30,107 bases of DNA from a virus (taxonomy: Duplodnaviria; Heunggongvirae; Uroviricota; Caudoviricetes): IMG/VR virus record IMGVR_UViG_2698536535_000005, positions 1 through 30,107 of that record, one strand, 5' to 3'. The notes below the pieces were generated by a model. It did no database searches and was not told the DNA's origin. It saw only the letters and a list, made by a program, of their open reading frames with translations. Positions 9,446-30,107 of the stretch are shown one piece after another. Position 1 is the stretch's first letter, and each line of letters begins with the position of its first letter. The translations under genes and the position numbers were made by a program.

Positions 9446-9472
9446 TACGAAATTTATAAGCTGAAACGTAAA

Positions 9473-9811: not shown

Positions 9812-9816
9812 TAACG

Positions 9817-10359
9817 ATGGGGCAAAGCATGACTAAGCTGACCATTAACAGAAAACCAAAAGGTATTTACGGCACGCCACAGAAAACGACGCAGGCGGCA
9901 CAGGAGCAGGATAAAACCACATCGGCGCATAAAGTGATGCCCGGTAACCAGAAAGCGCAGCAGAAGCCTACAGGGGCGACACCGTGGCGGCATATGACCA
10001 AACGCCAGCGCAAAAACCGCAGGCGCGTTAACCGCCTCACTGAGTTGTGGCCTGACTTATTCAGCCGGGAAGCACTGAAGCCGCTTAAGGTGGGGATATT
10101 CGACGACCTGATGCAGGATCTCGCCGTCAGGGGGCTGGCATTCGGGCCAGGGGCATTGCGTGCGACGCTGGCATCTTATGCGCAGTGTCCGCGCTATTAC
10201 CGCGCCTTAATGGCTGGTGGGGTACGCTACGACCTGAAAGGCCAGCCGTGCGGCGAGGTGACACCACAGGAACAACAGGACGCAGAAACGCGGCTGGTGG
10301 CGCTGAATGAGAAGCGCAAACGCCAGCGCCGGGCAGCAAAGGAGACAATAGGCGCATGA
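9817..10359 (+). CDS. FinO/ProQ-family RNA-binding protein
   Basis: Central region ALKPLKVGIFDDLMQDL...LRATLASYAQCPRYYRALMAGGVRYDLKGQPCGEVTPQE aligns by eye with the E. coli ProQ N-terminal FinO domain (PLKIGIF, LR.AL..Y, RY, R.DL.G.PCGE). Confidence 0.6.
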   Translation: MGQSMTKLTINRKPKGIYGTPQKTTQAAQEQDKTTSAHKVMPGNQKAQQKPTGATPWRHMTKRQRKNRRRVNRLTELWPDLFSREALKPLKVGIFDDLMQDLAVRGLAFGPGALRATLASYAQCPRYYRALMAGGVRYDLKGQPCGEVTPQEQQDAETRLVALNEKRKRQRRAAKETIGA

Positions 10360-10643
10360 TTCACGACAGCAAAGCGGAAGCACTGGAAGCGCGTGGTCTG
10401 TACCGGAGAGCGGCGGCGCGGTGGGCTGAGGTCATCATGCTGGCGAATGATGACAAGGCACGGGAACAGGCGGCAAAACGTCGCGCGGAATGTATCCACA
10501 AGGCAGCATGCCCACCAGCAAGGCAGGATAATTTCGGGGAGATGCGCGAAACCATCAGCCGGGCACATGCCGGGATGGGATTACATCAGCCCAATGGTGA
10601 GGCATTCAGGAAATACCAAAAAAAGAACAATTGTAGTCAGTAA
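10356..10643 (+). CDS. PerC-like small transcriptional regulator (tentative)
   Basis: 95-aa ORF with AAGGAG Shine-Dalgarno; N-terminus MIHDSKAEALEARGLYRRAAARWAEV resembles the PerC/Pch family N-terminal pattern as I recall it. Confidence 0.4.
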   Translation: MIHDSKAEALEARGLYRRAAARWAEVIMLANDDKAREQAAKRRAECIHKAACPPARQDNFGEMRETISRAHAGMGLHQPNGEAFRKYQKKNNCSQ

Positions 10644-10777
10644 CAGAGGATGGGATTCTCTTGGTTTTTTGTTGATGCTTTCTGAGGAAATCTACTACGT
10701 TGCTGAGCAGATGAATATTCAATTGCATCTGGGTTCCTGATAAGATTAATCTGAATATTTTCATTTGGAATAGGGAT

Positions 10778-11920
10778 ATGAATAAAACTTTAATTGCAAC
10801 ATTAGTCGGTATAGTAATGTTAACCGGATGTGGGCCAGAAGAGTTAACTCCAGAACAGAAACAGGAAGTAGCGGCTCTTAAAGCTGAACTGTCGCAAACG
10901 GAAGGTGAAATATCAGCAGCTAAGGAAGTTGACCAGCAGTTTTCTGGTGGGTTGATAAAAAATCTGACAACAGCAAGACTGGAAATATTAGGAACTAATA
11001 AAGCGCTTTTGGAACAGCGTATTAATGCTATTGAATCAGGTGCCAAAATTGATGTTGTTGTATCTGGAGTAAAACCTGATCCTGAGCTTGCGGCTTCAAT
11101 TAAAACTGAAATTGACAGCTTAGATGCAAAAATCAACGAAGCCAAAGCTGATGCTCGTCAGTATAGTGGTGGTCTGATAAAGGTACTAAAATTATCTACT
11201 GTTGCCACTGAAGAGCAGACCATGGCAATGTTGCAGCAAAAGTACCTCACAGCCAAGTATGGCCTCGCTGAAGTTAAGCTGGCATCAGTACAAGCTAATG
11301 ACGCAAAAAACAGTACTGAAACGGAAGTAACAGCCAAAAATTCCCAAGAGCAACTTCCTTTACTCCCGCCAGCGGATGGTCCGTTTGGCTTAGAAGCCGG
11401 TCTTACACAGAAAAACATCGAAGATATGATCGGTGCTAAGCTCAAGCCACTACCAGACAGTGTGAATCTGTATACTTCTGATAAATTACCGAAGCAAAAC
11501 GCAGATTTTGAAATGTATGGTTTGCTGATCTCCCCGAAAGCTGGTTTATGTCAAATACGGGCTTTAGGAAAAAATATTGATACTGATAGCTATGGATTGG
11601 CTCTTAAATCCAAGTTTGAAGAATTGAGTAATTCTTTAAGTTCTCTGTATGGAAAGGCTGATACTACAGACTTTTTGCTGGCTGGTTCAATTTGGAAAGA
11701 TCCTCAGGACTGGATGAGGGGGCTAAACAAAAAAGAACGCTTCTTATCTGCCACATGGAAGGGAACAAAAGAAATACCATTAAAAAACAATATCGATACT
11801 ATCTCTATTGAGGCCAGAGCGAACAATTCCACTCAGGGATATGTCTATCTGCAGTACTCATTTACAAATGACGAAATTTGTCAGGCAGAAATTGAAGGGG
11901 CGAAAAAAAGTTCCCTTTAA
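10778..11920 (+). CDS. lipoprotein with coiled-coil region and internal repeat
   Basis: Signal peptide MNKTLIATLVGIVMLTGC with LTGC lipobox; repeated motif QFSGGLIKNL / QYSGGLIKVL; AT-rich; intrinsic terminator directly downstream. Confidence 0.7.
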   Translation: MNKTLIATLVGIVMLTGCGPEELTPEQKQEVAALKAELSQTEGEISAAKEVDQQFSGGLIKNLTTARLEILGTNKALLEQRINAIESGAKIDVVVSGVKPDPELAASIKTEIDSLDAKINEAKADARQYSGGLIKVLKLSTVATEEQTMAMLQQKYLTAKYGLAEVKLASVQANDAKNSTETEVTAKNSQEQLPLLPPADGPFGLEAGLTQKNIEDMIGAKLKPLPDSVNLYTSDKLPKQNADFEMYGLLISPKAGLCQIRALGKNIDTDSYGLALKSKFEELSNSLSSLYGKADTTDFLLAGSIWKDPQDWMRGLNKKERFLSATWKGTKEIPLKNNIDTISIEARANNSTQGYVYLQYSFTNDEICQAEIEGAKKSSL

Positions 11921-11931
11921 ACAATCCGTGC

Positions 11932-11960
11932 AAAGCCCCTTAGTAAGGGGCTTTTATATA
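11932..11960 (+). terminator. intrinsic terminator
   Basis: Perfect inverted repeat AAAGCCCCTTA/TAAGGGGCTTT (11932..11954) followed by a T-rich tail. Confidence 0.55.
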
Positions 11961-11984
11961 TTAATGTTCAACGGGGGGGATTAG

Positions 11985-12308
11985 ATGAAAGATAATCTAG
12001 AAAAACTAATTGAAAATACTTTAAAAGATATTCTATTAGCTAATGCTGCTCTAACATTCATTTTTGCAATACCAATGGCTATTATCAGTAGGCATGGGAT
12101 GGGTATCACAATCTGGTTTATAACTGTGCTCATTGCACCTGCTCTGTGTGCAGTAGGTGCATGGCTTGTATCTCGAACATTCGGTCATGCTGAGGAGTTC
12201 TTTCATCGTCGGTGGGCTAAGCGAATCTATGTTTTTTATACTCTTGCGGCTGCCGAGTTTTTGCTTGTGTACTCAATCGCGCAAATAATGAAAAATCTGA
12301 TGAAATAA
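11985..12308 (+). CDS. small integral membrane protein
   Basis: 107-aa ORF with two or three long hydrophobic segments (ALTFIFAIPMAIIS, ITIWFITVLIAPALCAVGAWLV, IYVFYTLAAAEFLLVYSI); G-rich Shine-Dalgarno. Confidence 0.5.
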   Translation: MKDNLEKLIENTLKDILLANAALTFIFAIPMAIISRHGMGITIWFITVLIAPALCAVGAWLVSRTFGHAEEFFHRRWAKRIYVFYTLAAAEFLLVYSIAQIMKNLMK

Positions 12309-12711
12309 TTAACAAGTTATTATCATGGGGTTTGTGGCTGTTAACCTGCAGTGAGGCGACAATCGTGTATTTATAAAAACTTCCCCTTTTCACTCCCCGC
12401 TGTTTCTTCTGCTATTTCCTTTATGTTTGCATGCAGCAACATCTACCATACCTTTGCAGAAAAATCAGAGCATTTAGTGCCGAAGGTTGGTTTATTGATG
12501 CTTTTTGTTTCATTTATTGCAATTATTGTCATTCAGAAGGGATCATCATGAAAAATCACGGAGTAAAGCCAGTTTTACTTTCCCGGGGGCAGATCGAAGC
12601 CCTGTAACGTATCCAGGCCGAAAAGCGTCAGAAATCTGTGCTTGGTGTGGCACCGTCGATTCATGTTATTGCCCGGCAACTGATGGATAAGGCACTTAAA
12701 GAGGTGAGGCT

Positions 12712-12984
12712 GTGAAATTAAATATCAGTGTGGATAAACGCCAGCTATGGCAGAAAAAAGAGAACAGCGAGGCATTCAGGGCTTTGCTGGTGGAAAATCT
12801 TCGGCACCGGTTCAGTGGAGAGTTGCCTGATGCACTGGGGAAGAAACTGGAATCCCTGACGGTGGAAATTGGCGATTATGGCTTTGTTGATGTTGAAAGC
12901 ACGACTGCCAACACAGAAATCGTAAAGCAGGTCGTCAATGATGTAATGAAAACCACGCTTAGCCAGCCATCCTGGCGCAACTGA
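12712..12984 (+). CDS. hypothetical protein
   Basis: 90-aa ORF with GTG start after GAGGTGAGG; no recognisable motif. Confidence 0.35.
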   Translation: MKLNISVDKRQLWQKKENSEAFRALLVENLRHRFSGELPDALGKKLESLTVEIGDYGFVDVESTTANTEIVKQVVNDVMKTTLSQPSWRN

Positions 12985-13083
12985 ATCAGTAAGGGGCGGT
13001 TATTGCCCCTTTCCTCCATACCCACAACGCATTCCCTTTTCGCATGAAATTATTTTTTATCGTATATGCATGAGGTGAGTTAC

Positions 13084-13608
13084 ATGTTGATGAGTAAAGC
13101 CGAATACGCCAAATACAAAGGCGTAAGCCGCCAGACAGTTTACGACTGGATCGAGAAAGGCGAAGTGATCATGTCTGGCAAAAAAATTGATGTGGAGGCG
13201 ACAGAGCAGCGGAACAGCCCACCGGCACAGGGGAAAGACACCGTTTCTGAAATGTGGCCAGAAAGAACGCTGGAAATGACGTGGGGCGAGTTCTGGAAAG
13301 CAGTTAAGGCCAGAGACGGTAAAATCCCTGCGCCAGTAACGGACGACGACATACAGCAACGTGTGCTGGATGCAGCCGGGGAATTAGACTGGGAAGTGCA
13401 ATTTCTTGATGATGGCGGGATTTGGATGGATGACGGCGATGCTGAGTTTTATTTCGAGCAATATGATCTCAGGCAGAATGCCGAACTGGTGATTGGTACG
13501 CTGCGACGTGAGGTCTGTTATGTGGCTGATGCTTGTCCTGACGAGCTGGATAACTGGAGCGAAGCCGGACTAAACGCCCTGGCTGCATGGGAAAAAACAG
13601 GTCATTAA
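13084..13608 (+). CDS. HTH DNA-binding protein with acidic C-terminal domain (possible small-terminase-like or regulatory protein)
   Basis: Start taken at the ATG preceded by GAGGTGA (track ORF starts 13066); N-terminal MSKAEYAKYKGVSRQTVYDWIEKGEV is a phage-type helix-turn-helix; repeat array immediately downstream. Confidence 0.55.
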   Translation: MLMSKAEYAKYKGVSRQTVYDWIEKGEVIMSGKKIDVEATEQRNSPPAQGKDTVSEMWPERTLEMTWGEFWKAVKARDGKIPAPVTDDDIQQRVLDAAGELDWEVQFLDDGGIWMDDGDAEFYFEQYDLRQNAELVIGTLRREVCYVADACPDELDNWSEAGLNALAAWEKTGH

Positions 13609-13615
13609 CGGCCGC

Positions 13616-13821
13616 AAAAAGTGTCAAGTTGAGCAGCTTGCCAGGTTGGCACTTTACACTCTGAACACGAAAAAGTGTCAACCTCGCTGTAAACCCTGCC
13701 ATTACTGGCCTTGAGCCATATTTACCACGCCAGAAACCCGTGAAAACCGCGAAAAGTGTCAAGTTGTCATGCTTAGAAATGCCAGGGTTTTTCGCGAAAA
13801 AGTGTCAAGTGTGTCAACCTG
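13616..13821. repeat. array of AAAAGTGTCAA boxes (putative protein-binding sites)
   Basis: Five GTGTCAA cores at 13621, 13675, 13756, 13803 and 13811, most preceded by an A-run, between the HTH gene and the next small ORF. Confidence 0.6.
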
Positions 13822-13850
13822 CGATATTAAGATTTCCTAAGGTGTAAACC

Positions 13851-14045
13851 ATGACCATCACCGAAGCCGATTTGCTGGATATAGTGCGCAGCGTGGCTGG
13901 AATTAGCGAATTGCCAAAGAAAGCCAGATTTGCCGATTATGCGGACGTGGTAGCTGCTGCAATGCAGCTAGAAGATCATGCTCCGAATGAAGGAGATTTG
14001 CTGCATATCCGCATCCGATCGGCGGCGATACTGGCAGCCCGTTGA
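13851..14045 (+). CDS. small hypothetical protein
   Basis: 64-aa ORF; weak support only. Confidence 0.3.
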   Translation: MTITEADLLDIVRSVAGISELPKKARFADYADVVAAAMQLEDHAPNEGDLLHIRIRSAAILAAR

Positions 14046-14399
14046 CGCCACCAGCATAGAGAGAACGCCGTGCCTTACGAGTGGAAGAAACCGGACATGC
14101 TGCGGCGATAACCCGTTGATTAAAAGACGGCTCAAAATTGAGCCGGGTAGCAGTTTGTCTGATTTATGCGTTTAGTTGTTGATATTGCCGATGACGAAAA
14201 ATTGCACTCTGTAGCTAGTGGGCGTTTATGTTGAAAACTGCCGATTCTGATAGGCTTTTATCATGCACTTGCATGAAAACTGCTCTGTGTAGCGGGCAGG
14301 CCTGCTGGGGAGAGCATTGCGCGCTTTAGTAGCAATAAAACACATCAATAAGGCTTTTTATTTTCTTGTATTATAAAATTATACTTATTATCTTGTTGA

Positions 14400-14429
14400 T
14401 TGACAGATAAAAACAAGGGATATGCATAA
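14400..14429 (+). promoter_or_regulatory. candidate sigma70 promoter for the 14433..16852 operon
   Basis: TTGACA (14400..14405), 18-bp spacer, CATAAT (14424..14429); so close to the ATG that either the transcript is near-leaderless or another promoter is used. Confidence 0.25.
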
Positions 14430-14432
14430 TAA

Positions 14433-15122
14433 ATGAACAAATCACCTACTGAGATAATTAATATGCTAAGCGATAAGTTCAATAGTAACTTTCGTGAATG
14501 GCAGGGCATACAAGATAAAAAATTAGATAAAGTAATTATCTCAATTTTCACTCTTAACACGATTGCTGAAATTTTGAATAAAAAGAAAACATCAGTTCAT
14601 CATGATGTTTGTATTAAAATTTTTAGTGAGATTATTGCTGATACGTCATCTTCTTTATATCTTTCTGCCTGTGCCATAGATAAACCAGCTAATATTGTTC
14701 TAAGGAGAGTTTTGGAACTAGGTGTCGCATCTATTTATCTTTGGGATATGCCTCATGTTGTATATTCTTGGAAAAATCATGATGAAGACTTAAGTTTCAG
14801 TGATATGTTGAAGCATATAACAAATCAAGGCTATATAGACTACTTCACAGAAAATGAGAAGATAGGAGGGAAAGTATGTGTTATTGATATGAGAAGAGCA
14901 CAGAAAATTTATGGACAATTAAGTGATATCGTTCATGGAAAAATAACCTCATTTGAAACTGATTTGCCTAATAAGTTCACTTTTGAAAGTGAAGATTGGG
15001 AGAGGTTCATAGGTCTGGCTGAGGTTGTTTTGGGTATGATAATTAATTCCAATATTGTTCGTCATAAGATAAGAAAAGAAGTGCTATCTTCATTTCCTAA
15101 ATCTAGTGAGGTAGTTTTATAA
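14433..15122 (+). CDS. hypothetical protein, component A of candidate two-gene system
   Basis: 229-aa ORF, strongly AT-rich; stop overlaps the start of the downstream ATPase gene (TAATG); no recognisable catalytic motif. Confidence 0.7.
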   Translation: MNKSPTEIINMLSDKFNSNFREWQGIQDKKLDKVIISIFTLNTIAEILNKKKTSVHHDVCIKIFSEIIADTSSSLYLSACAIDKPANIVLRRVLELGVASIYLWDMPHVVYSWKNHDEDLSFSDMLKHITNQGYIDYFTENEKIGGKVCVIDMRRAQKIYGQLSDIVHGKITSFETDLPNKFTFESEDWERFIGLAEVVLGMIINSNIVRHKIRKEVLSSFPKSSEVVL

Positions 15123-16852
15123 TGTCTATGTTAGACACTGAGTTATTACATGCAGCACGTACCGAAGATCTTGAGTTGAAACAGGTCAAACAACTGGCTG
15201 TTCTTGGTGAGTTTGAAAAAGATGTTGTAGCAAAACTAAAAATAGCGGGCTCTCATCTGATTCAGGGTGCCAGAGGAATTGGAAAGTCTATGCTTCTAAG
15301 AGCGGCAGAAGCTGAATTAGATAGTGATTTTCCTGTTAAAAAGATTGTGGGGGTATATGTTAATTTCAAAACCAGTACTTTGCTGGAAGGGGTTAAAGCT
15401 GACAATAAAAATGCATTTCAGATATGGGTAAGCGCTAAGTTACTACAAGCTTTGTACGAAAAGTTGATATTTTTAGATGTCATTCGTGACAATAATAGCA
15501 GTGATCCATTTCAAAGAATTTTTGGGATTAAAACTATAACTGGAATGAAAGATGCTCTACAATCTAAAATTCATCTGCTTCAAAGGTTATCAAGAGATCC
15601 TTCTTCAGATAAATTGTTGAATGAAATTGGAGAGGATTTTTTAGATAAGGTTAATGATATAAGTTATGTAAATGACATCATCAAGGAGATAATTCAAGAA
15701 TACCAACTTAATAGAATTGTTTTTTTATTTGATGAGGCTGCTCATACCTTTATACCAGAACAGCAGGAAATATTCTTCGAAATATTTAAATTGCTTCATG
15801 GCGGTAAAATTGCAGTTAAGGCGGCTGTATATCCGTCAATTACATCGTATGGTAAAAATTTTGAAGTTGGTCAAGATGCCATGATGATAAACCTCGGAGG
15901 ATACGAAACTGGAAATATTGGGCGGGAACGAACACGACGTTTATATCGTGATCTATTAGATAAACGGGTCACACAAGGAGCAGCAAAAAAGAGAATATTG
16001 GCTAAAGGTGATTTGCTAGATCAATGTATTCATCTTTCATCCGGAAACCCTAGAGCATTTCTCCATTTATTTAATAAAGTATATGAGAAAGGTTATACTG
16101 AAAGAGATCTTTTAACTTGCACTCAGGATTATGTCAATCAAGAATTATTACCTTATCATTTAGGGCTTTCAAAACGATTACCTAAGTATTCTCACCATGT
16201 TCGCATTGGACTTGATATTCTTAGGGAGTGTATTATCCCTGAGCTTAGATTGAAAAATAACAGAGAGAAAAAGACTCAAACCCAATCTGCTTTTTTTGTT
16301 CTTCCTCCCGTTATTTCTCCAAATCTTAGATTGTCTCTAGATTTGCTTTGTTATTCTGGTGTTCTTTCCAAGCAAGGGTCCGTGAAGATGTCTAATCGAA
16401 AATCGGGTCAGCGCTACATGGTTAATTTATCATTACTTTTCACTGAAAAAGCATTCGTATCTAATAAGTTCGGGGAGATAATAACACTATTATCTCTCGC
16501 TGATTATAAAGAATTTGGCGCAGCAGATTCTGAATTAGAGCGTTTTTTAGAAAAATTGAAAGAATCAGCTGATGAGTGTCAAACTTGTTCCGCTGAGTTA
16601 CCTGGAGATGCGAAGTTTTGTCCTAAGTGTGGGACACCTGTACCAACAAGGTCAATTGTAGGACAACTTCTTGATGATCCGGTTAGTTGCTTGTCAATTA
16701 GTAACGCAATATGCGACCGAATAAAAGAAACCTATCCTAAAGTGGGTGATATCGTTCACTGTTCGAGGGATGATCTGAAAAAAATACCGTACATTAAAAA
16801 TGTTAGGTCAAAAATAATCAAGAACGCAGCGGATGAATATATCTCAGGCTAA
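15122..16852 (+). CDS. Orc1/Cdc6-like AAA+ ATPase with C-terminal zinc ribbon and HhH (RNA polymerase alpha-CTD-like) domain, component B
   Basis: 576-aa ORF; Walker A GARGIGKS, Walker B IVFLFDEAAH, sensor-2-like SGNPRAF; C-terminal CQTC-x11-CPKC zinc ribbon; last ~60 aa resemble the RpoA alpha-CTD; GAGG Shine-Dalgarno; terminator downstream. Confidence 0.8.
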   Translation: MSMLDTELLHAARTEDLELKQVKQLAVLGEFEKDVVAKLKIAGSHLIQGARGIGKSMLLRAAEAELDSDFPVKKIVGVYVNFKTSTLLEGVKADNKNAFQIWVSAKLLQALYEKLIFLDVIRDNNSSDPFQRIFGIKTITGMKDALQSKIHLLQRLSRDPSSDKLLNEIGEDFLDKVNDISYVNDIIKEIIQEYQLNRIVFLFDEAAHTFIPEQQEIFFEIFKLLHGGKIAVKAAVYPSITSYGKNFEVGQDAMMINLGGYETGNIGRERTRRLYRDLLDKRVTQGAAKKRILAKGDLLDQCIHLSSGNPRAFLHLFNKVYEKGYTERDLLTCTQDYVNQELLPYHLGLSKRLPKYSHHVRIGLDILRECIIPELRLKNNREKKTQTQSAFFVLPPVISPNLRLSLDLLCYSGVLSKQGSVKMSNRKSGQRYMVNLSLLFTEKAFVSNKFGEIITLLSLADYKEFGAADSELERFLEKLKESADECQTCSAELPGDAKFCPKCGTPVPTRSIVGQLLDDPVSCLSISNAICDRIKETYPKVGDIVHCSRDDLKKIPYIKNVRSKIIKNAADEYISG

Positions 16853-16859
16853 AGAAAAG

Positions 16860-16883
16860 CCCCATGTAAATGGGGTTTTTTTT
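16860..16883 (+). terminator. intrinsic terminator
   Basis: CCCCAT-GTAA-ATGGGG hairpin (6-bp stem, 4-nt loop) followed by T8, 8 nt after the ATPase stop codon. Confidence 0.8.
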
Positions 16884-16892
16884 AATATGGGT

Positions 16893-17284
16893 TTATACTT
16901 TTAATGCCCGCCAATGCATTAATTCAATTCTTTGTATTAAATAATTAGATCTATTATAAGCTCTTCTGACTTCATTTCTATCAATATGAGATAATGACGT
17001 CTCTATTGCATCTGAATTAAACCCTGCTTCATTTAAAGTTTTACTCGCAATAGAACGCATCCCATGGTAACTAGCTTTCCACCGTAACCAATTCATTTAA
17101 GAGCAGCATTAGCCGTTTGACTATTCATTGGTTGCATAGGATCGTTTCTGCTAGGGAATACATATTCTCGATGACTACTAATAGGTTTCATCACATCCAG
17201 AAATTCTAATGCCTGTGGAAATAAATGAGCAATGTGTTTCCGGTTAGCCTTCATCCGTTCGGTGGGAATTGCGGAGGGCAGCAT
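16893..17284 (-). pseudogene. integrase remnant (C-terminal part of a P4-type tyrosine recombinase, frameshifted and 5'-truncated)
   Basis: Two adjacent minus-strand ORFs (16893..17096, 17093..17284) together align with the C-terminal ~130 aa of the integrase at 1611..2825 (FPSRNDP vs FPGRNDP; HIDRNEVRRAYNRSNYL vs HVDKNSIRGTYNHAQYL); no N-terminal half is present. Confidence 0.7.
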
Positions 17285-17680
17285 AAATGCAGAGGGAAAT
17301 CTGCAAATCCTAGGCTGGCCTTGCCATAAAGCGAAGACGGCGCGGGAGCATACAAGATGATAATTATTATTAGTAACAAAGGGGAGGGCGGGTCAAATCT
17401 CTGTACCCCTAGCTGTTCTGGACCGCCTGCCTCGTCAAATTTTTACACCCGCAAAATTAAAAAAAATACTTCACGCTGGTGGTTATCCTTGGGCATCCAC
17501 TAGCCTTTCATCATTGACTGCTGGTGAGGCTGAGACTCGAAGAAAAAGAGTGCTAGAGAGTCGGTTTTTGCACAGTTTGGGGTAAGGGAAAATTTATTGG
17601 GGGTACATTTGGGGGTATATATAAAAATGCAATGTAAAAATGTCATTAAATATCAATGCGATTGTTGTTTGTGTTTTGTT

Positions 17681-19005: not shown

Positions 19006-19563
19006 TTACGCTTCCTGCTCTTTCTTGATACGTTGCACCGTCTGTGTGCTGACACTGAAATCTTTTGCTACGCTCCGAATTGATCCACCATTCGCGAGAG
19101 CGGCAACAATTCCCGCTCGATCAATTGCTTTTCCATTACCACGTTTTGCTATACGTCCAGCGGCCTTAGCTGCGGCAATCCCCTCACGTTGCCGCTCAAG
19201 CATCATTTCACGTTCCATTTGTGCCACTGCTGCAAGCACTGTGAGCATCATATTCCCTGCGGGAGAGTTCTTCCCTGTCTTAAAGTCTTCTTTATGGAAA
19301 TGCACAGACACGCCGCGCTCTGTTAATTGCTCAACCGTTGCCAGTAGGTCGGCTGTATTACGGCAAAGTCGATCAATGCTGTGAACATGCAAAACATCAC
19401 CTTCACGCACATAGTTCATCATTGCCTCAAACTGTGGGCGCTGGGTATTCTTGCCTGACGCTTTATCTTCAAAGACTTTATCAAGAGTTACTCCAGCTAA
19501 TTGACGGTCTGTGTTTTGTTGGACAGTCGATACCCTAATGTATCCAATATTAGCCATTTTCAT
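19006..19563 (-). CDS. serine recombinase (resolvase/invertase family)
   Basis: 185-aa protein; N-terminal catalytic motif GYIRVSTVQQNTDRQ with the nucleophilic Ser; small-recombinase length with C-terminal HTH-like region (GGSIRSVAKDFSVSTQTVQRI). Confidence 0.85.
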   Translation of the reverse strand: MKMANIGYIRVSTVQQNTDRQLAGVTLDKVFEDKASGKNTQRPQFEAMMNYVREGDVLHVHSIDRLCRNTADLLATVEQLTERGVSVHFHKEDFKTGKNSPAGNMMLTVLAAVAQMEREMMLERQREGIAAAKAAGRIAKRGNGKAIDRAGIVAALANGGSIRSVAKDFSVSTQTVQRIKKEQEA

Positions 19564-19584
19564 TTTCCTTCTGTGTTGATTTGT

Positions 19585-19688
19585 GTGTAGTGATTATTGA
19601 TCGTGTTGATTAGGTGTGTAAAGGACTTTTTTCACTACGAAATTCGAAGGTTTTTAGTGTGGTGATTTAGCCTGCTTTATCACTACAC
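19585..19688. promoter_or_regulatory. putative res/recombination site upstream of the serine recombinase
   Basis: Four related half-sites: GTGTAGTGA (19585..19593), TCACTAC (19632..19638, inverted), GTGTGGTGA (19657..19665), TCACTACAC (19680..19688, inverted). Confidence 0.4.
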
Positions 19689-20085
19689 GTCTTGCATGAG
19701 AATCATGTAGTTATGTTTTGGTAAAATTAGCAAGCTATTAAATAGCGTGTTTATTTTGAAAAAATTAATTTTTTCAACACGTGAAAGGAACTTGTTCGAC
19801 AAATAATAGATTGATTTTTAATCAACAATTTCTGATAGTGCTCTGTAAGCCACATTACACAAGGCGCAGCGAAAGTGATGTAAAAGTGAAGAAAGCTAAC
19901 ATTGCACTTTTAAGCTACTTTTCATTGAATTTTTAGTATGGAATTACATAGGGATTAATCATCAATTAATCTTGAATTTAAGCCTGTTTTAGATGTTTAA
20001 TTTTTGATAGCAAGAAACACTTTTAGAAGATCATTGCACAGATGTTATGTGATAAATGGATGTAACGGTAGGTCACTGTGAACTA

Positions 20086-20222
20086 CCCCCCACAGAATTC
20101 TGTTATCCTTAACTTTTAAAGAAATATGCACCCTAACAGAAAACTGTTACCCCAACCCTAACAGAATTATGTTAGACACCCCCACAGAAAACTGTTAGCC
20201 ACCCCTACAGAATTTTGTTACC
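20086..20222. repeat. five palindrome-containing iterons (consensus about CCCYAACAGAAWWCTGTTA)
   Basis: Units at about 20086, 20129, 20154, 20180 and 20203; the last four tandem with a ~24-bp period; each contains ACAGAAnnCTGT-type inverted repeat (ACAGAATTCTGT is a perfect palindrome). Confidence 0.7.
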
Positions 20223-20909
20223 TATTAGATCAACTATCAAACTACAATTAAATTATCTTTTATAAATTCTTTTATCTTTAAAGAATAATTATAGGGATAC
20301 CCGTTAGGGGAGTCTTCGACTATCCCTTAATCTATTGGCATTCGCCAGAACCTTGCACAAGTTAGAGTGTTAGTCGTTAGACTGCTTGTCATAACACATA
20401 GTTTTTTGTTTGTTGATGTTAGTTAGTAGATCTATGTTCGCTAATGCCGCTCACAACGAATATGTAATCTACTATGTGCAAATAGCCTACGGCTTGCGTA
20501 AGGCTAAATAGTCTTGCGCTGTGCGCAGAACGATAATTAACTAACTACCATCTAACGATCATCAATCTATTTAAGAGAAAATCTATTGTGCAATACTCTG
20601 ACGAGTGCAATAACCTTGTGTGCTACGCGTTAGCGATGTTAGCACATAGACACAGACAACAACCAACAACAAACAAAAAAGAATGGTTTTAGTAGTTGAA
20701 GGTTAAATAAGATTCTACCGCTTAAATCAAGCCGTAGGCGAGCTAAACAGCCATTACATAAGGGAATGTATTGTTTTTATCAAAACCTCGTTAGAACGCG
20801 TTTTAGAGCGTTTTAGACAATAATAAAGAATAGCACTACACATGAGAGCACGAATTGCTAAGAAATATCATAACTTACTGAAAATCATCAATATTTATAT
20901 GGATAGGGG

Positions 20910-20938
20910 TTGACAAAAGCTTTTAGTCGTGGTAAAGT
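20910..20938 (+). promoter_or_regulatory. candidate sigma70 promoter for the rightward small-gene operon
   Basis: TTGACA (20910..20915), 17-bp spacer, TAAAGT (20933..20938), about 120 nt upstream of the 21059 ATG, which has an AGGAGG Shine-Dalgarno. Confidence 0.4.
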
Positions 20939-21058
20939 AATATTAGGGACAGAAAACATTCTTATCCTCTAAGTAATTAAACCAATGCACCGCACTTTGA
21001 AGCCCAAGGCTTGCAAGGTGTCTTTTTCTTTTAACCAAATAGAATAGGAGGTTAATTA

Positions 21059-21259
21059 ATGAAGTATTACACTCCACAGGATGTAATCGAAGCCTGGAAA
21101 CGTGGTGAGATCAATCGTTTTAAAGTAAGGATGAACAGGAACACAGCGCGACGCTGTGGTTATCCAGAGCGTGAAAAATGCTTTGACGATGCACTAAAAA
21201 TTATTGATGAATTAAGAAAAAATGAAAAAGGATCTGAAAAAGAATCTGAAACAGAGTAA
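21059..21259 (+). CDS. small hypothetical protein
   Basis: 66-aa ORF with perfect AGGAGG Shine-Dalgarno. Confidence 0.5.
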   Translation: MKYYTPQDVIEAWKRGEINRFKVRMNRNTARRCGYPEREKCFDDALKIIDELRKNEKGSEKESETE

Positions 21260-21278
21260 AGAAGAGAAGGAGAAAACT

Positions 21279-21449
21279 ATGAGCGAAACTACAGAAAAGA
21301 AAAGACAACCACGCACTTGCTTTCATATTCCTGATGAAGTATTTCAGGTGTTGTTTAAAGAAGCCAGAAGTAAACGTATCACTGTTACAGATTACATTCT
21401 TGATATGTTGAAAAGAGAGGCTGAAACACTCTCAAACAAAAGCAAGTGA
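21279..21449 (+). CDS. ribbon-helix-helix-like small DNA-binding protein (tentative)
   Basis: Start taken at the ATG preceded by AAGGAG (track ORF starts 21222 and overlaps the upstream gene); segment RTCFHIPDEVFQVLFKEARSKRITVTDYILDMLKRE fits the RHH strand-helix-helix pattern. Confidence 0.45.
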   Translation: MSETTEKKRQPRTCFHIPDEVFQVLFKEARSKRITVTDYILDMLKREAETLSNKSK

Positions 21450-21502
21450 TTTTTATCACCATAGTAGCGCCGTAGAGCGTGATTACATCAAGGAGATTTT
21501 TA

Positions 21503-22072
21503 ATGATTAATGAAGAACAATTTGTAAAAGTTCCTATGTGGATTCTAAAAATAAGCCAAGTAAACGGGCATAAATTTACAGATAGTGCTAAAAACCTTTA
21601 CTGCTATTTGAGAGGGTTTGATCGTGCATTTCCCTCTTACGCTAAGATAGGCGATGTTTTTGGCATAACACCAAGAGCAGCAGAAGAAAGGGTTAAGAAA
21701 TTGCTCGAAATGGGATTAATTATAAAAGATGCACGACCAGGAAGCTCTAACCTTTATCGAGTGCTTGATATTCCAAAAGGAGAATCATCACTACCTGATC
21801 CTTCTGAGAAAGAAGACGAATCTAATGAAATATTGAATGTTTCCGAAATCATCGTTGAAGAAGAAACACAGGAATCAGAGTTCCCTGAGCGGCCCGAAAT
21901 TTTTACTTGGCTTCTTTCCCTTGATAAGAAGAAACCACCGCACGAAGAAACAGAAGATTTTGTAAAACGTGCATTAGATTCAAAGAATATCTATCTTGAG
22001 AAACAGGCTTTTCACGATCTGATAATATCTCTAAGAGAAAAAAGTGAAATATACGATTCAATACCATTCTAA
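21503..22072 (+). CDS. winged-helix/HTH protein with acidic C-terminal region (possible replication initiator or regulator)
   Basis: Start at the ATG preceded by AGGAG (track ORF starts 21479); N-terminal PMWILK...NLYCYLRGF...IGDVFGITPRAAEERVKKLLEMGLI is HTH-like; acidic tail. Confidence 0.5.
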   Translation: MINEEQFVKVPMWILKISQVNGHKFTDSAKNLYCYLRGFDRAFPSYAKIGDVFGITPRAAEERVKKLLEMGLIIKDARPGSSNLYRVLDIPKGESSLPDPSEKEDESNEILNVSEIIVEEETQESEFPERPEIFTWLLSLDKKKPPHEETEDFVKRALDSKNIYLEKQAFHDLIISLREKSEIYDSIPF

Positions 22073-22081
22073 GGAGAATAA

Positions 22082-22351
22082 ATGACTTATAACATCACTA
22101 TAGGAAACAAAACTATTGAAATAACTGAAAGCGGATACAACATTTTAAAAGCTATTTTGGACATAGAGTTCTCACCCCCGACAGTGGTTAGCTTTTGTAG
22201 TTTAGGCGGCTACAGCGCACAACATGTGAATCATTGGTTAAACCATTTTACATCGTTCGGTGTGCTGGATTATGAAGGGATTAACCACACTACATTTCGT
22301 CTTTTGAAATTAAACAAAGATTTTGAATTGTTTATCACAAACAATCAATAA
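22082..22351 (+). CDS. hypothetical protein
   Basis: 89-aa ORF with AAGGAG Shine-Dalgarno. Confidence 0.5.
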   Translation: MTYNITIGNKTIEITESGYNILKAILDIEFSPPTVVSFCSLGGYSAQHVNHWLNHFTSFGVLDYEGINHTTFRLLKLNKDFELFITNNQ

Positions 22352-22447
22352 CAACAGATCGGGCAATACATATGGCAAATGCATTTATGGCGATATTCAT
22401 CGTAACAATGGTATCAAGTTTTTATAATCCACATAAAAAGAAGGAAA

Positions 22448-24991: not shown

Positions 24992-26020
24992 ATGATTATC
25001 GGAAATGAAGTGGTTGATCTTGCTCCACTGTTCGAATTAAACGACTCACGCAATTACCTACTGTCTACTCTGGATTTTACTGATCCTGTGCCTGTAGAAA
25101 GTCACAAAGTGGCTGTTTCCCAGCTTATCGAGAGCAATGAATCTCTGTTCAACCATCCTACAAGCCGTTTTAGCTCTGAGCATAACGTTACTAAGCGTGA
25201 GAACGGGGAAGAATATCTTATTGAAATCCCGTACTTTTTAAGGGAAGACCTGATCAAACCGCAGGACGTGCAAGGCAAACGCAAAGCCGGAAGCTCTATT
25301 GAAGAAACACTGCCGGATCTGTATGCGGAATATATCGCTAAACACAATGTTGCATTCCAGCGCACTAAAGAAAGCATCCTCGCGGCTTCTCTGTTCTCTG
25401 GCAAGACACACACCCCGAAAACTGACGATGTTCTGATCGATTACAGCACTCTGTTCGGTGTGTCTCCAATGACTGCAACCGTTGACGCATCCAGCACCAA
25501 CACAATGACCGTATTCAAGCAATTTGATCAGATGCATACGGATATGATTGCTAAGGCACAAAGCCAGGCTGCAACCATTGAGCGTGTTGTTGTGTTCTGT
25601 AAACCTGCGGCATTCAACGCTATTCGTTACAGCGTTGGCATGGTTAATGCGTTCCAGTATGCAAGCCCTGTAGACGATGCAAACGTGGTGTTTAATGTGC
25701 GTTCTCTGCTGCCTGGTGTAACTACTTTCACCATTCCAGGAACTAACATTGACCTGATCAAAGTGACTGATCCGCTGCTGCTGGCACATATGACCGCTGA
25801 CGCTGTAGCTATTCCTAAACTTGCTAAGGGGGCAGGTGTTTACCAAGCTATTTTTGGTGCGCCTTCCAGTTCATTCGATCTGCTGTCTCAAGGCGCTAAA
25901 GAGTATTACAGCTATGCTTTCGAATCGAATCGCGGCGACGCAGTGCACGTAGTGACCGAGAATAGCTCGCTTGTGGTTAACCACGGTGTTGGCTTCTCTG
26001 TGCAGATCACAGTAGCGTAA
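24992..26020 (+). CDS. hypothetical protein, possible major capsid-like protein (speculative)
   Basis: 342-aa ORF with strong AAGGAA Shine-Dalgarno; size and position after a ~120-aa gene resemble the lambda gpD/gpE arrangement; similarity to gpE not demonstrable by eye. Confidence 0.55.
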   Translation: MIIGNEVVDLAPLFELNDSRNYLLSTLDFTDPVPVESHKVAVSQLIESNESLFNHPTSRFSSEHNVTKRENGEEYLIEIPYFLREDLIKPQDVQGKRKAGSSIEETLPDLYAEYIAKHNVAFQRTKESILAASLFSGKTHTPKTDDVLIDYSTLFGVSPMTATVDASSTNTMTVFKQFDQMHTDMIAKAQSQAATIERVVVFCKPAAFNAIRYSVGMVNAFQYASPVDDANVVFNVRSLLPGVTTFTIPGTNIDLIKVTDPLLLAHMTADAVAIPKLAKGAGVYQAIFGAPSSSFDLLSQGAKEYYSYAFESNRGDAVHVVTENSSLVVNHGVGFSVQITVA

Positions 26021-26404: not shown

Positions 26405-28246
26405 ATGTTAGAGCTAAACGTGGCACGCCTCTCGAACGTTGTCACCTTCGAAGTTAACCGACCATCATTAGAGAAAGCAAAAGCAGAAGTAGAAAAACTT
26501 CGTAAACAAATGGCGGCGGTGAAAGATATAGAATTGCGTGTTAAGACACATAAACAATCAACCGCTAAAGCAAAAAAAGACGTAGACGATATTGCTAAAA
26601 AGCAAGCACAGGCTGATAAAGCTAATGCTAAAGCACAATTAGCCGCTCAACGTGTAGTTGCAAGAGAACAAAAAGCCCTGGCAGCACGCAAAGAGAAGGC
26701 AGAATTAAAGCTTTTAGACGTTGGAGCAAGCATTAGTGCAATGCACCGTCTTTCTGTAGCGGAACAATATAAAGCTATTGCACAGGCTAGAGAAATTGCC
26801 CTCCAATATGAAAGAGGCGCTATTAGTCTGGCACGTATGAATAGCCAAATGAAACGCCTACAACAGCAACAACGTAAGATTAATGGCAATCGTAACGCTC
26901 ACGCTAAAGCCTATGCACCTGTTAAGGGTAGCGGGAGTATTGGCGGCGGTGCTGCGGCTGTTATGCTGGGTGGCTTAGGCGCTGGCGCTACGTATATGGC
27001 TATGAGCAAAGCCTCTGAATTTGTTACTAACAGCTTTGCGAATGCTGAAACGCTGGGTGAATTGTATAGCCGTGCGAAGCTGGGCGGTGTAGACGTTAAC
27101 CAGATGAACAATATTGAGCAATGGGCCTACAAAAACGGCGTTGATTCAATGATGGGCGAACAAGGTCGTAGGAAGTATCTCGATCAGATGAAAGATGTAC
27201 GGGAGAAGGCTACTAAATCTTATGATGAGGCTGAATATGTAGTTGATAAGAAAACTGGTAAAGGAGAATGGAAGGGCGGCGATAGCGGCATCAATACTTT
27301 AATGAATGAAGGATTCCTAACTAAAAAGGATCTAAAAGACTTTGCTGATAATCCGGCTGGTCTGGTTAGTAAAGCAGTTCAGGGAATGGTAGCTAAAGGC
27401 TATTCAGATGCACAAATCGGTAGTCGTCTGGAAGATCTGGCTGATGATTTGATGCTCACCTCTAAATACTGGACACGCTCCGCTAAAGAAGTGGAACAAT
27501 CAGCACGAGAACAACGAGAATCAGGGCGCTGGGTAACGCAGGCACAACAGGAAAGCGTTATTAAATTCCGTGAACTGAATAATGCACTTAGTGGGCTTTC
27601 TGACTCACAAGGGATCGCCTTTGTTGATGGCTTTATGAAATCTCTTGATCCGAAAGTGATTGAAGAGTTTAAAAAGAGCATGGTTGCAATGCTGCCAATG
27701 TTTACCAAATTAGGCGAGGCTATCGGCGGATTGGTTAACGCCGTAATGAAAACAATCAACTGGCTGATGAAAAACGACGAGAAGACGGAAGCTATTCAGA
27801 AGAATTTAGGGGATGCACCGCCACTATCTAACGAAGGAATGAAGCAGAATCTTTCTAATCTCACTCCTGATCAATATAAAGGCGCTGGCACCGGAACAAC
27901 TAAGCCAGATAACAGCAATTCCCTGGTTAACACTATTAAAAGCTGGTTTATGCCAGAAGAAACGGTAGGTGGGGCGCAGGCTGTAAATCAATACAGTCTC
28001 GAAGGACAAAATATTGCAAATCTGAAACAGAGTGCAGCACAACAAGCTTTCAAGGCTCCTTCTTACACCTTTGCACCTGTTATTAACTTCAATCCAGAAT
28101 TACAAGTAAATGCAGAAGTGCCGCTAACTATCGAATCAGACACCGGACGATTGAGCGAATTTATCGACTTCAAATCAAAGGCATCTTCCGCTGAGTTTAG
28201 CAAGCTATTAACGCTGGGTGTTATGTCAGGCGGGTCAACCTATTAA
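26405..28246 (+). CDS. large coiled-coil protein with Gly-rich hydrophobic segment (tape-measure-like or internal virion-like; function unknown)
   Basis: 613-aa ORF; N-terminal ~130 aa Lys/Ala-rich coiled coil; GSGSIGGGAAAVMLGGLGAGATYMAM hydrophobic Gly-rich segment; no enzymatic motif. Confidence 0.6.
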   Translation: MLELNVARLSNVVTFEVNRPSLEKAKAEVEKLRKQMAAVKDIELRVKTHKQSTAKAKKDVDDIAKKQAQADKANAKAQLAAQRVVAREQKALAARKEKAELKLLDVGASISAMHRLSVAEQYKAIAQAREIALQYERGAISLARMNSQMKRLQQQQRKINGNRNAHAKAYAPVKGSGSIGGGAAAVMLGGLGAGATYMAMSKASEFVTNSFANAETLGELYSRAKLGGVDVNQMNNIEQWAYKNGVDSMMGEQGRRKYLDQMKDVREKATKSYDEAEYVVDKKTGKGEWKGGDSGINTLMNEGFLTKKDLKDFADNPAGLVSKAVQGMVAKGYSDAQIGSRLEDLADDLMLTSKYWTRSAKEVEQSAREQRESGRWVTQAQQESVIKFRELNNALSGLSDSQGIAFVDGFMKSLDPKVIEEFKKSMVAMLPMFTKLGEAIGGLVNAVMKTINWLMKNDEKTEAIQKNLGDAPPLSNEGMKQNLSNLTPDQYKGAGTGTTKPDNSNSLVNTIKSWFMPEETVGGAQAVNQYSLEGQNIANLKQSAAQQAFKAPSYTFAPVINFNPELQVNAEVPLTIESDTGRLSEFIDFKSKASSAEFSKLLTLGVMSGGSTY

Positions 28247-28293: not shown

Positions 28294-28971
28294 ATGGCAA
28301 TGGGTCCGTTAACCATTGGTCGCCCGACTGAGGCGAAAATCAACAGCACAAGCAACGATAGCAACGGTAGAACAACTAAAGGGGGTAACGGCTTTGCGAT
28401 CATTACCTCTAACCTCGGCAGTGGTGCAAATGCTGCTTACAATGACTACCAGGCATTATCATTTGATAGCGTGGAATCGACGAAAATTAGCCGAAATGCA
28501 GACGTTACAAGCTATGCCGTCGAATCAGGATCAGAAGTTAGTGATCATGTTCAAATACGGAATAACAAGTTCACATTACAGGGGCGTATCTCTGAAACAG
28601 TATTGAAGCTCAATCCCGATATGATTAAGAATGCGGGAATTAACGGCAATAGACGTATGCTTATGCTTGAATACCTAAATCAGTTGATGGACAGTCGCCA
28701 ACCTTTCCTACTTGTCACTGAGTTAAAAAATTATGACAACGTTGTGTTAGTTGGCATGTCTTACGAAGAAGAAGCAAGCGAAAGCCTATTGTTTACTCTT
28801 GATTTTGAGCAAATCCGTCTTGTCTCTAAAGCAACTACAAGCGCAATTGCGGTAAAAACAGCACCAAATAAATCTGTAGGAGGTCAGGTTAAAATGCAGG
28901 TAAATACAACAGAACAGAAAAATCAAAAAAGCCCAGGGCAAGACGTTGTAACGCCAGTATTTAAACAATAG
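28294..28971 (+). CDS. hypothetical protein
   Basis: 225-aa ORF with AAGGA Shine-Dalgarno; convergent with the downstream integrase. Confidence 0.55.
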   Translation: MAMGPLTIGRPTEAKINSTSNDSNGRTTKGGNGFAIITSNLGSGANAAYNDYQALSFDSVESTKISRNADVTSYAVESGSEVSDHVQIRNNKFTLQGRISETVLKLNPDMIKNAGINGNRRMLMLEYLNQLMDSRQPFLLVTELKNYDNVVLVGMSYEEEASESLLFTLDFEQIRLVSKATTSAIAVKTAPNKSVGGQVKMQVNTTEQKNQKSPGQDVVTPVFKQ

Positions 28972-29051: not shown

Positions 29052-30050
29052 CTATAGCGTTGTTTTACGCCTTAAATTTGATTTTTTATTGATTGATAAG
29101 CCTTTCTCTATTTCAGGGTAGCGTAAAAGCTCAATATATTTTTTAAGCTCTACTGGAGAAGCTGCATTCTTGCTATATGTGCGGAATGTTTCTGTATTGC
29201 CGCGCTGATGGCCCAAAATTAAAGCTATGCGGTCCTCTGGAATTTGATTTCGATCAAGAAGCTGTGCTACTCCGTGTCTCAGAGAATGAAACACTTTCCT
29301 TTCTGTTCCCTTTTCCCCTAAAGCCTTTCGTTTAGCTCTTGTAAATCGTTGTGTATGCCACGTAGAGCGTTTACCGTCAGCACGTTCTGTAATGCTGGCG
29401 TGATAGAACAAAAAGCCATTGTGAGGCTTTTCACGAAGAGATAACACCAATGGAGTGATAAGGCTATGCACAGGCACAAGACGTGCCGCAGCTTTCGTTT
29501 TTCCCTGTGTGATTTCAAAACACAGCACACCTTCGATCTCTTTCACATCGTCTATTGTGAGACTTGCTATCTCATTGATCCGCATACCTGTATATAAACC
29601 GATAAGACACAAAGCCGTCATTTCTTTGTTTTCTGCTGAATTACCGGAAAATACTTGCAACACCTGCAATAGCTCTTTGTTAGAAAATGCCTCGTAGCTC
29701 TCTCTACTTTGTGCCACATCAAGCCTATGCCCTCGCCAGGGGGAGAGCGCCCTTTCTGGCGCATCGTGGTAACGTGATGAAGCTAATTCCCATAGCTGGG
29801 CCATTGGGCTGATATAATTTGCAATTGATTGTTGTGAAAGAGTTTTTTGCATATGTTCAATCCAGCCTGTAACAGTGGTGCGGCTTACATCTTGCAATGC
29901 AATATCAGGCTTTTTACGGTAGGAGAGAAACATCTCTACCGCTTTTCTTGCCTTAGCTAAAGTGGCTGGCTTCTTCTTCGTGCTGTTAATTGTCAGGTAG
30001 ATTTCAAGAATTTTAAGCAATGACGGACACGAAGACGCTGTATCTTGCAT
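29052..30050 (-). CDS. tyrosine recombinase / phage integrase (different family from the thrW-proximal integrase)
   Basis: 332-aa minus-strand ORF; C-terminal catalytic region with HSLRHGVAQLL (H-x-x-R) and a downstream tyrosine; lacks the long P4-type N-terminal arm-binding domain. Confidence 0.85.
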   Translation of the reverse strand: MQDTASSCPSLLKILEIYLTINSTKKKPATLAKARKAVEMFLSYRKKPDIALQDVSRTTVTGWIEHMQKTLSQQSIANYISPMAQLWELASSRYHDAPERALSPWRGHRLDVAQSRESYEAFSNKELLQVLQVFSGNSAENKEMTALCLIGLYTGMRINEIASLTIDDVKEIEGVLCFEITQGKTKAAARLVPVHSLITPLVLSLREKPHNGFLFYHASITERADGKRSTWHTQRFTRAKRKALGEKGTERKVFHSLRHGVAQLLDRNQIPEDRIALILGHQRGNTETFRTYSKNAASPVELKKYIELLRYPEIEKGLSINKKSNLRRKTTL

Positions 30051-30107
30051 TCTGGTAGCTGTTTTGGCGTATTTAGCCTTACTGCGTAACTGAACCGCCC
30101 CGGGTTT

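Follow-up and report, generated by a model that had tools for sequence, protein, structure and literature searches.

The question raised by this locus is what purpose is served by five palindromic direct repeats located in a stretch of viral-record DNA of 30,107 nucleotides (IMG/VR record IMGVR_UViG_2698536535_000005; the whole stretch is referred to below as the window), and which protein recognizes them. The repeats, designated type A, are probably the iteron replication origin of an integrative island in the Escherichia coli chromosome, served by a modular initiator of 189 residues that is encoded at 21503-22072 (+ strand). An iteron origin alone would be ordinary; it is the context that gives this one its significance. 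The island is a probable satellite of lytic coliphages of the Stephanstirmvirinae, and some of these phages encode proteins in which initiator-type DNA-binding domains are joined to a nuclease-like domain.

A repeat search of the window identifies five 24-nucleotide direct-repeat copies of a single family, at 20085-20108, 20129-20152, 20154-20177, 20177-20200 and 20200-20223. Their start-to-start spacings are 44, 25, 23 and 23 bp, and the copies are 71-100% identical to the reference copy. Iteron 1 (20085-20108, + strand; core ACAGAATTCTGT at 20092-20103) is set apart from the other four by an A+T-rich spacer (20109-20128, 85% A+T), while iterons 2-5 (20129-20223, + strand) run head to tail at 25/23/23-bp spacing with cores at 20136, 20161, 20184 and 20207. 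The core pattern ACAGAANNNTGTTA has exactly five plus-strand matches, all of them within 20092-20220. When up to one mismatch is allowed, it is found seven times in the whole 30-kb window compared to an expectation of 0.77 (standard deviation 0.80, maximum 3), and none of 100 dinucleotide shuffles gave seven matches. The repeat search and the pattern statistics bear out the preliminary description of this DNA, in which five copies, four in tandem and one separated, had been placed at 20086-20222.

The repeats were compared across 34 related loci taken from E. coli genomes, GTDB genomes and IMG/VR, plus the window. Iteron copies 1, 2 and 4 of the window are perfect ACAG-N4-CTGT palindromes, and copies 3 (ATGT) and 5 (TTGT) have one arm mismatch each. 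The type-A palindrome is longer than this core, forming a 16-bp dyad with the sequence TAACAG-N4-CTGTTA. The unit consensus, drawn from 45 units (15 distinct) at nine loci, is ACCCYN-ACAGAA-WWN-TGTTA. Within it ACCC, ACAGAA and TGTTA are invariant, the sole departure among the 45 units being one unit type with ACAAAA. Because the invariant ACCC sits 5' of each core, the type-A unit has a direction. The same five-copy layout (44, 24/25, 23, 23) is present in all nine loci that have a type-A initiator (the window and eight others). An iteron origin is expected to contain at least three direct repeats at a regular spacing of about two helical turns, and five such units are found here.

The repeats are housed in a 1.5-kb intergenic region (19564-21058) that contains no open reading frames (ORFs). 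Immediately 3' of iteron 5 is an A+T-rich tract (20224-20295; 85% A+T over 20224-20291) that is a candidate DNA-unwinding element. The most A+T-rich 40-bp segments of the intergenic region (90% A+T) start at 20243-20254, inside this tract. A tract of 76-91% A+T follows the last iteron in 35/35 loci, represented by 16 distinct sequences, and the 70 bp upstream average 65% A+T; the adjoining A+T-rich unwinding tract expected of an iteron origin is thus present. An imperfect palindrome lies directly 3' of the tract (20284-20336; arms 20284-20299 and 20321-20336) and is kept in the window-type backbone. By its position this palindrome resembles the one that flanks the A+T-rich part of ori-lambda. 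No DnaA boxes were found at up to one mismatch over 19900-20450, and Rfam searches gave nothing relevant in the intergenic region (gathering thresholds on the window; E-value of 5 or below on 19500-21300).

The protein that binds the repeats can be identified by natural variation. Among the compared loci, the repeat at the array position belongs to one of five palindromic types: A (ACAGAAn3TGT), B (TTCCTAn7AGGAA), C (AGGTCAn2GTGAnCT), D (TATCAAn3TGATA) or E (GTAACGn4GTTAC). The units are mostly spaced at approximately 22-24 bp, with type E less regular (22-55 bp). The initiator varies in a corresponding manner: its N-terminal 100 or so residues fall into five unrelated-looking clusters, followed by an acidic linker and then by one of a few C-terminal domains. 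The type of the array abutting the A+T tract, and so proximal to it, matches the N-terminal cluster of the initiator in 34 of the 35 loci (10 A including the window, 8 B, 11 C, 2 D and 4 E), a count that takes in one C-array locus in which the contig ends before the initiator gene. The single exception is a truncated remnant without an array. This co-variation, which is what would be expected of a cognate initiator, indicates that the N-terminal domain of the 21503 protein is very probably the iteron binder. A protein domain is in this way paired with a DNA repeat for five specificities by natural variation alone, and the five iteron/domain pairs offer a ready-made system for studying target change in winged-helix domains.

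Other products of the locus were considered as the binder and do not follow the repeats. The preliminary description correctly placed the array upstream of the genes starting at 21279 and 21503, and proposed the product of either as a binder. The 21279 gene (21279-21449, + strand) encodes a ribbon-helix-helix (RHH) protein of 56 residues that is Arc-like (phrog_582, E-value: 0.0018). This half of the proposal fails, as RHH type 1, the type in the window, accompanies A, C and D arrays and type 2 accompanies A, C and E arrays, so that A arrays are found with two RHH types; the RHH protein was rejected as the binder of types A, C, D and E. The C-terminal domain of the initiator was rejected as the specificity determinant, its type 1 occurring with A, B, C and D arrays. 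The first gene of the operon (21059-21259, + strand; 66 residues) is conserved in all loci whatever the array type, its product being 63-100% identical to the window copy in the relatives fetched. The gene downstream of the initiator (22082-22351, + strand; 89 residues) does not track iteron type either; its own type follows that of the initiator C-terminal domain. The 89-residue product is a possible partner of the initiator, and adjacency alone could explain the linkage. The serine recombinase (resolvase/invertase family) encoded at 19006-19563 (- strand) is not the iteron partner, since versions that are at least 98% identical accompany A, B, C and E arrays and 11 array loci have no recombinase match. 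The recombinase beside the array exists in two versions (at least 98% or approximately 57% identical to that of the window) or is absent, regardless of iteron type.

The array also appears to be exchanged as a unit. Some BLAST hits in E. coli are limited to query positions 1-106 and others begin at 257, corresponding to 20085 and 20236 of the window. As these breakpoints fall at the array edges, the array behaves as an exchangeable module with sharp boundaries. One to four non-cognate units precede the cognate array in relatives, and their order, E-C-A-D-B-C, never varies. In the window these are represented by remnants at 20062-20085 (+ strand), namely a half unit of type E (GTAACG..., 20062) and a single unit of type C, TAGGTCACTGTGAACTA (20069-20085); relatives with D or C as the cognate array have the same E-C-A leader. 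The ordered copies may be fossils of successive swaps, homology that promotes swapping, or functional sites. Up to 15 units of the five types occur in some loci (L007:2640-3111; also L038, L039, L014 and L031).

The 21503 protein consists of an N-terminal winged helix (residues 1 to approximately 90; type A), a disordered acidic linker (residues 91-128) and a three-helix C-terminal domain (residues 130-180). Among PHROGs, each of the five initiator types scores best against phrog_270, 'replication initiation protein' (E-values of 9e-6 to 4e-12; 1.2e-8 for the window initiator). The group of O-like and DnaD-like phage initiators with a winged helix takes in PHROG 270, 391 and 678 and Pfam HTH_36. 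Nearly all of the other PHROG matches are 'replication initiation O-like' or 'DnaD-like helicase loader' families, with a few of unknown function, and no transcription-regulator family occurs among the PHROG matches of the five types. The protein lacks a helicase or primase domain. Membership in the RepA_N family was considered and rejected: there is no Pfam RepA_N match, and the RepA N-terminal structure 4pql ranks 45th among the structural matches (E-value: 0.12). The intact initiators examined end in EIYDSIPF, TIYDSLPF or (D/E)DFD(I/L)PF, the tail in the window being EIYDSIPF (22046-22069). The acidic tip of SSB (the protein that binds single-stranded DNA), DFDDDIPF, recruits many replication and repair proteins (PMC7145534). 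The initiator tail resembles this tip and could, judging by its residues, recruit host or helper replication proteins. The annotated SSB of coliphage Mt1B1_P17 (L043:5862-6794) contains PPMDFDDDIPF followed by a 15-residue extension, APIGLQYGRNFLHCF, such that its tip is not at the C-terminus.

The setting of the array is chromosomal. The window is E. coli chromosomal DNA containing proA and tRNA-Thr (1369-1444) followed by two tandem islands, the second of which bears the array. This island begins near a partial direct repeat of the tRNA-Thr 3' end (17650-17668, + strand), which is its left attachment site as identified by comparison with the CAU16175-type island: in strain CAU16175, a matching island of 12.8 kb is the only one at tRNA-Thr. 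The window thus has two elements, one behind the other, at thrW. A plasmid or phage-plasmid setting, as suggested in the preliminary description, is not borne out, as of the 862 places matched in E. coli 861 lie on the chromosome and just two PLSDB records match, one of which is a 4.9-Mb record.

The plus-strand operon of the island consists of the 66-residue gene, the RHH gene, the winged-helix gene and small genes. Farther downstream are homologues of three Stephanstirmvirinae structural proteins: a major capsid protein (24992-26020, + strand), a tape-measure-like protein of 613 residues (26405-28246, + strand) and a tail/baseplate protein of 225 residues (28294-28971, + strand). These are respectively 25%, 26% and 53% identical to ORFs of Mt1B1_P17, where they occur in the same order; Mt1B1_P17 is a lytic phage of the genus Phapecoctavirus in the Stephanstirmvirinae. 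A tyrosine integrase gene (29052-30107, - strand) occupies the right end of the island and runs off the window. None of the island ORFs matched a terminase, portal, helicase or primase family in profile searches. Because its structural genes are diverged Stephanstirmvirinae homologues, the island is, from its gene content, a probable satellite of lytic coliphages of this group (phAPEC8/phi92-like). It shows the features by which a satellite is recognized, namely an integrase and attachment-site repeat, an incomplete set of virion and replication genes, kinship with a helper phage and a size of approximately 12.8 kb. The presence of capsid, tape-measure-like and tail genes with no terminase or portal match is an unusual gene set for a satellite.

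The same phages carry relatives of the initiator. Mt1B1_P17 has a gene with 99% identity to a 355-bp stretch of the window that spans the initiator gene's ribosome-binding site and its first 105 codons. This phage gene encodes QNJ49226, a protein of 328 residues that has a type-A domain, a type-B domain and a C-terminal nuclease-like domain. The type-A domain of QNJ49226 is 100% identical to that of the initiator over 100 residues, which include the first residues of the satellite linker. Four lytic Stephanstirmvirinae coliphages share this architecture of two initiator-type heads and a nuclease-like domain. The first head is type A in Mt1B1_P17 (QNJ49226, L010:5042-6028; 100%) and in the BI-EHEC ORF (L011:5035-6000; 93%), type D in muut_154 (L040:2504-3502; 100% over 105 residues) and type E in inny_184 (L041:2024-3127; 92%). 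The second head is type B in all four (88% identity in QNJ49226, 88-89% across the set). The locus appears to be equivalent among the phages (as seen for muut and inny), with the first head swapped among A, D and E.

The C-terminal domain of these chimeras is akin to annotated endonucleases. It has a Pfam MUG113 match of 23.6 bits (cut-off 22.3 bits), a T5orf172 match of 17.1 bits that is under the cut-off of 20 bits, and a match to phrog_681, 'endonuclease' (E-value: 2.4e-18). In tblastn searches it is 35-51% identical to annotated homing/GIY-YIG endonucleases, including those of T5-like and Vibrio phages, and 261 phage records were retrieved; a protein-homologue search with the nuclease domain alone gave no matches. 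The catalytic residues were compared by eye. A precedent exists in the Vibrio cholerae phage ICP1, whose protein Odn joins a DNA-binding domain like that of the RepA of the satellite PLE to a T5orf172 nuclease domain, and requires the PLE iterons to cut the PLE origin (PMC8263062). Both parts of Odn, a DNA-binding domain homologous to the initiator and a nuclease domain of the T5orf172/GIY-YIG superfamily, have counterparts in the chimeras by sequence match. On balance, the phage chimeras seem likely to be origin-directed nucleases that cut satellite origins of the matching type, and they hint at an arms race over origin DNA.

The explanation that survives best beside this one accepts the array as an origin but takes the chimeras to be ordinary homing endonucleases with acquired heads, or else factors that the satellite senses or is helped by. 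It is unlikely but has some weight. The nuclease-domain family consists mostly of phage homing endonucleases, the chimera nuclease is predicted from sequence while its structure model has a predicted local-distance difference test (pLDDT) score of just 43, and chimeras occur in only four phages (six records) among 50,697 phage records. Against it, however, the heads are 88-100% identical to the satellite domains and retain part of the satellite linker, and the swapping of the first head among types takes place at a syntenic phage locus. A chimera acting on phage DNA would also be short of targets, for no array of any type is present in the initial 150 kb of the Mt1B1_P17 genome (151.2 kb), where A cores number three and are scattered and exact B-E cores are absent. 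The array of the window is found in no phage of the phage collection. Finally, the precedent of Odn has the same architecture (PMC8263062).

The proposed model for the origin module is as follows. Dimers of the N-terminal winged-helix domain of the initiator would bind the 16-bp palindromes TAACAG-N4-CTGTTA, with the 5' ACCC lending polarity to each iteron. With five dimers spaced approximately 23 bp apart, the resulting initiator-DNA complex would melt the adjoining 85% A+T tract (20224-20291), and the C-terminal domain, together with the SSB-tip-like tail, would recruit host or helper-phage replication proteins. Specificity would be modular, with at least five iteron types that each have their own N-terminal domain and with the pairs shuffled among backbones. 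The two-headed phage nuclease would bind and cut the iterons, thereby disabling the satellite. Origin-directed cutting of this kind would explain both the diversification of the iteron/head module and its sharp bounds.

Several observations weigh against an origin with this initiator. The iterons are 1.3 kb from the initiator gene, neither inside nor beside it, and the island encodes no recognizable helicase, primase or polymerase. The family matches of the initiator are only moderate: its Pfam HTH_36 match is 19.8 bits, under the gathering cut-off of 25 bits, and its sole PDB sequence match is a hypothetical regulator (E-value: 0.19). Confidence in the structure model is low (pLDDT 59); the model comprises a winged helix (H46-53, H57-69, E73-76, E84-87) that is joined by a disordered linker to a C-terminal domain of helices. 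Its Foldseek matches in the PDB are generic winged-helix regulators (Fur, MarR and LexA among them; E-values of 0.02 or above). As the structural matches are generic regulators, the predicted fold cannot tell an initiator from a repressor. The agreement in 34 of 35 loci includes many that are closely related and corresponds to approximately a dozen independent module combinations. The RHH and initiator genes overlap in type B, and the RHH protein and N-terminal domain, being invariably linked there, are inseparable; in type A, the type found in the window, the two are cleanly separable. The fixed-order non-cognate copies upstream of the cognate array are also left unexplained by a simple origin model.

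A rival explanation is that the repeats are operators and that the winged-helix protein is a repressor or activator, perhaps a master regulator like Stl of SaPI, controlling the recombinase or the operon. The sites are palindromic, like the operators of dimeric repressors. The model matches structures of transcription regulators (Fur/PerR, MarR and LexA among them), and the source annotation calls the 21503 protein a 'transcriptional regulator', although such names are assigned automatically. A weak minus-strand promoter-like match overlaps iteron 5 (20240-20212, 9/12), but matches of this kind are at background level (6 compared to 6.6 expected in shuffles). Co-variation identifies the binder and not the effect of binding. 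The best sigma-70-like match to an operon promoter, TTGACA-17-TAAAGT with TG (20910-20938, + strand; consensus match only), is approximately 690 bp downstream of the array, and the recombinase start codon is approximately 520 bp from it, distances that do not favour an operator. The known-function PHROG matches of all five types are to initiator or helicase-loader families and include no regulator. Five phased sites, an A+T tract and a modular protein that binds through its N-terminus and would recruit through its C-terminus make up the layout of an origin. An origin is preferred to an operator because of the initiator-family PHROG matches, the A+T tract in every locus, the palindrome that follows it and the distant promoter; regulation by operators is accordingly improbable.

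The preliminary description had offered the array as a candidate origin or centromere. The first of these alternatives is supported by the co-variation, the initiator-family matches and the A+T tract. The second, a partition site bound by the RHH or winged-helix protein, is very improbable. RHH proteins (ParG and omega) and some helix-turn-helix proteins do bind arrays of short repeats as centromere-binding proteins, and an RHH-like gene is present. However, gene and profile searches found no ParA, ParM or TubZ-type gene in the island, RHH type and iteron type are not coupled, and the element is integrated at a tRNA gene with an integrase and attachment-site repeat, its E. coli matches being almost exclusively chromosomal. 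Equally improbable are res- or hix-like sites for the serine recombinase: serine resolvases work on groups of imperfect inverted repeats that lie upstream of the resolvase gene, and the recombinase is the nearest upstream gene, but near-identical recombinases accompany four iteron types, the approximately 57% identical version is found with the same array types, 11 array loci have no recombinase at all, and the five units share spacing and orientation, unlike res subsites.

The origin proposed here recalls that of PLE, although the two differ in their components. PLE is, as the island would be, a satellite of a lytic myovirus, with a non-coding origin of semi-palindromic iterons that pairs with the N-terminal domain of a modular initiator, and its modules are swapped between variants (Barth et al. 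2021, PMC8263062). PLE replicons are modular, and Odn is thought to drive the exchange of PLE replication modules (PMC8263062). ICP1 resembles the coliphages in encoding a chimera of an initiator-like DNA-binding domain and a T5orf172/GIY-YIG-type nuclease domain. The host here is Escherichia, however, and the initiator is of the HTH_36/phrog_270 type, whereas that of PLE is RepA_N. The iterons are five of approximately 23 bp here and three of approximately 30 bp in PLE1. The coliphage chimeras have two tandem heads that are 88-100% identical to satellite domains, compared to 42% for Odn, and cutting by them is predicted by analogy.

Other replicons also share features with the island. In ori-lambda, as proposed here, dyad iterons are bound by N-terminal winged-helix dimers and are followed by an A+T tract and then a palindrome; the N-terminal domain of the O protein sets specificity, and its C-terminal domain recruits the loader. 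The initiators have weak profile matches to 'replication initiation O-like' PHROGs, and a Pfam Phage_rep_O match (E-value: 0.014) is found for the B-type domain only. Unlike in lambda, where the iterons are inside the O gene, those of the island are in non-coding DNA 1.3 kb upstream of the initiator gene, and there is no P-like loader gene. SaPI/PICI elements are also integrative, phage-dependent islands with their own iteron origin and a cognate initiator of island-specific specificity. Their initiators are helicases or primase-helicase fusions, whereas that of the island is a small protein with no nucleoside triphosphatase (NTPase) domain, and PICI iterons lie on both sides of an A+T tract that comes immediately downstream of rep, unlike the arrangement here. 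The island further differs from PICIs in carrying capsid, tape-measure-like and tail genes akin to those of a lytic myovirus, and in having no alpA or pri-rep. Iteron plasmids (RepA/pi/TrfA) share direct sites of approximately 22 bp about two turns apart, located by an A+T-rich region, and a winged-helix initiator. Plasmid iterons are monomer-bound and non-palindromic, however, while the element described here is chromosomal and integrative, and its initiator has no Rep_3-type Pfam match.

The island family is common in E. coli. Sequence matching 19600-22400 is present in 731 of 5,426 complete E. coli genomes (13%), with up to four matching places per genome. In 170 genomes the type-A array is complete, and none of them annotates it. 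A scan of one genome per species found only four loci, in Escherichia alone, and the family seems to be confined to this genus. Two contigs labelled 'MAG: Bacillota bacterium' (L013 and L015) carry an Escherichia-type island, with first-gene products 93% and 63% identical to that of the window, and are probably mis-binned E. coli DNA. In the searched full-text literature, which is incomplete in coverage, no description was found of the island family or of Odn-like proteins in coliphages.

A probable, uncharacterized satellite family of this frequency is of practical interest because the phAPEC8/phi92-like phages to which it is linked are used in phage-therapy work. Origin-directed nuclease counter-defence is known only from the Vibrio phage ICP1, and the present comparison suggests that it has a coliphage counterpart with two heads. 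If so, the host range of these phages might be predictable from whether a matching satellite and nuclease are present, and the conflict would be accessible to E. coli genetics. The complete picture would be that of a widespread, undescribed E. coli family of Stephanstirmvirinae satellites whose origin module is attacked by two-headed nucleases, in which the E-C-A-D-B-C fossils are an arms-race record, the initiator mimics the SSB tip and the conflict is a second, independent one of the Odn type, set in the foremost bacterial model species. Taken as a whole, this picture falls a little short of an even chance.

Island relatives are found at several chromosomal sites other than tRNA-Thr, including tRNA-Gly (L002), a position next to thiM (L006/L009) and the site in L003. 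Some are remnants: L009 has an initiator but no iterons, and L004 and L005 are interrupted by insertion sequence (IS) elements. In the window, the first and unrelated island lies between tRNA-Thr and the array-bearing island (1369-17668). It encodes an integrase (1611-2825) and contains integrase fragments (16893-17284, - strand), and an int-alpA RNA is predicted in it at 2870-2937 (Rfam, 45.5 bits).

The RHH/winged-helix gene pair is not adjacent to the array and lies 1.06-1.28 kb away. Part of the intervening DNA, between the array and the operon promoter match (20296-20760), contains nested long-range inverted repeats that are conserved. Its folding z-scores are -3.9 and -3.6. A large structured RNA in this region was considered and is unsupported, since with RNAalifold 11 relatives yielded just three compensatory pairs and a covariation term of +0.63. 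Within the same region, a hairpin at approximately 20617-20648 exists in two sequence versions, both of which have a two-tier stem.

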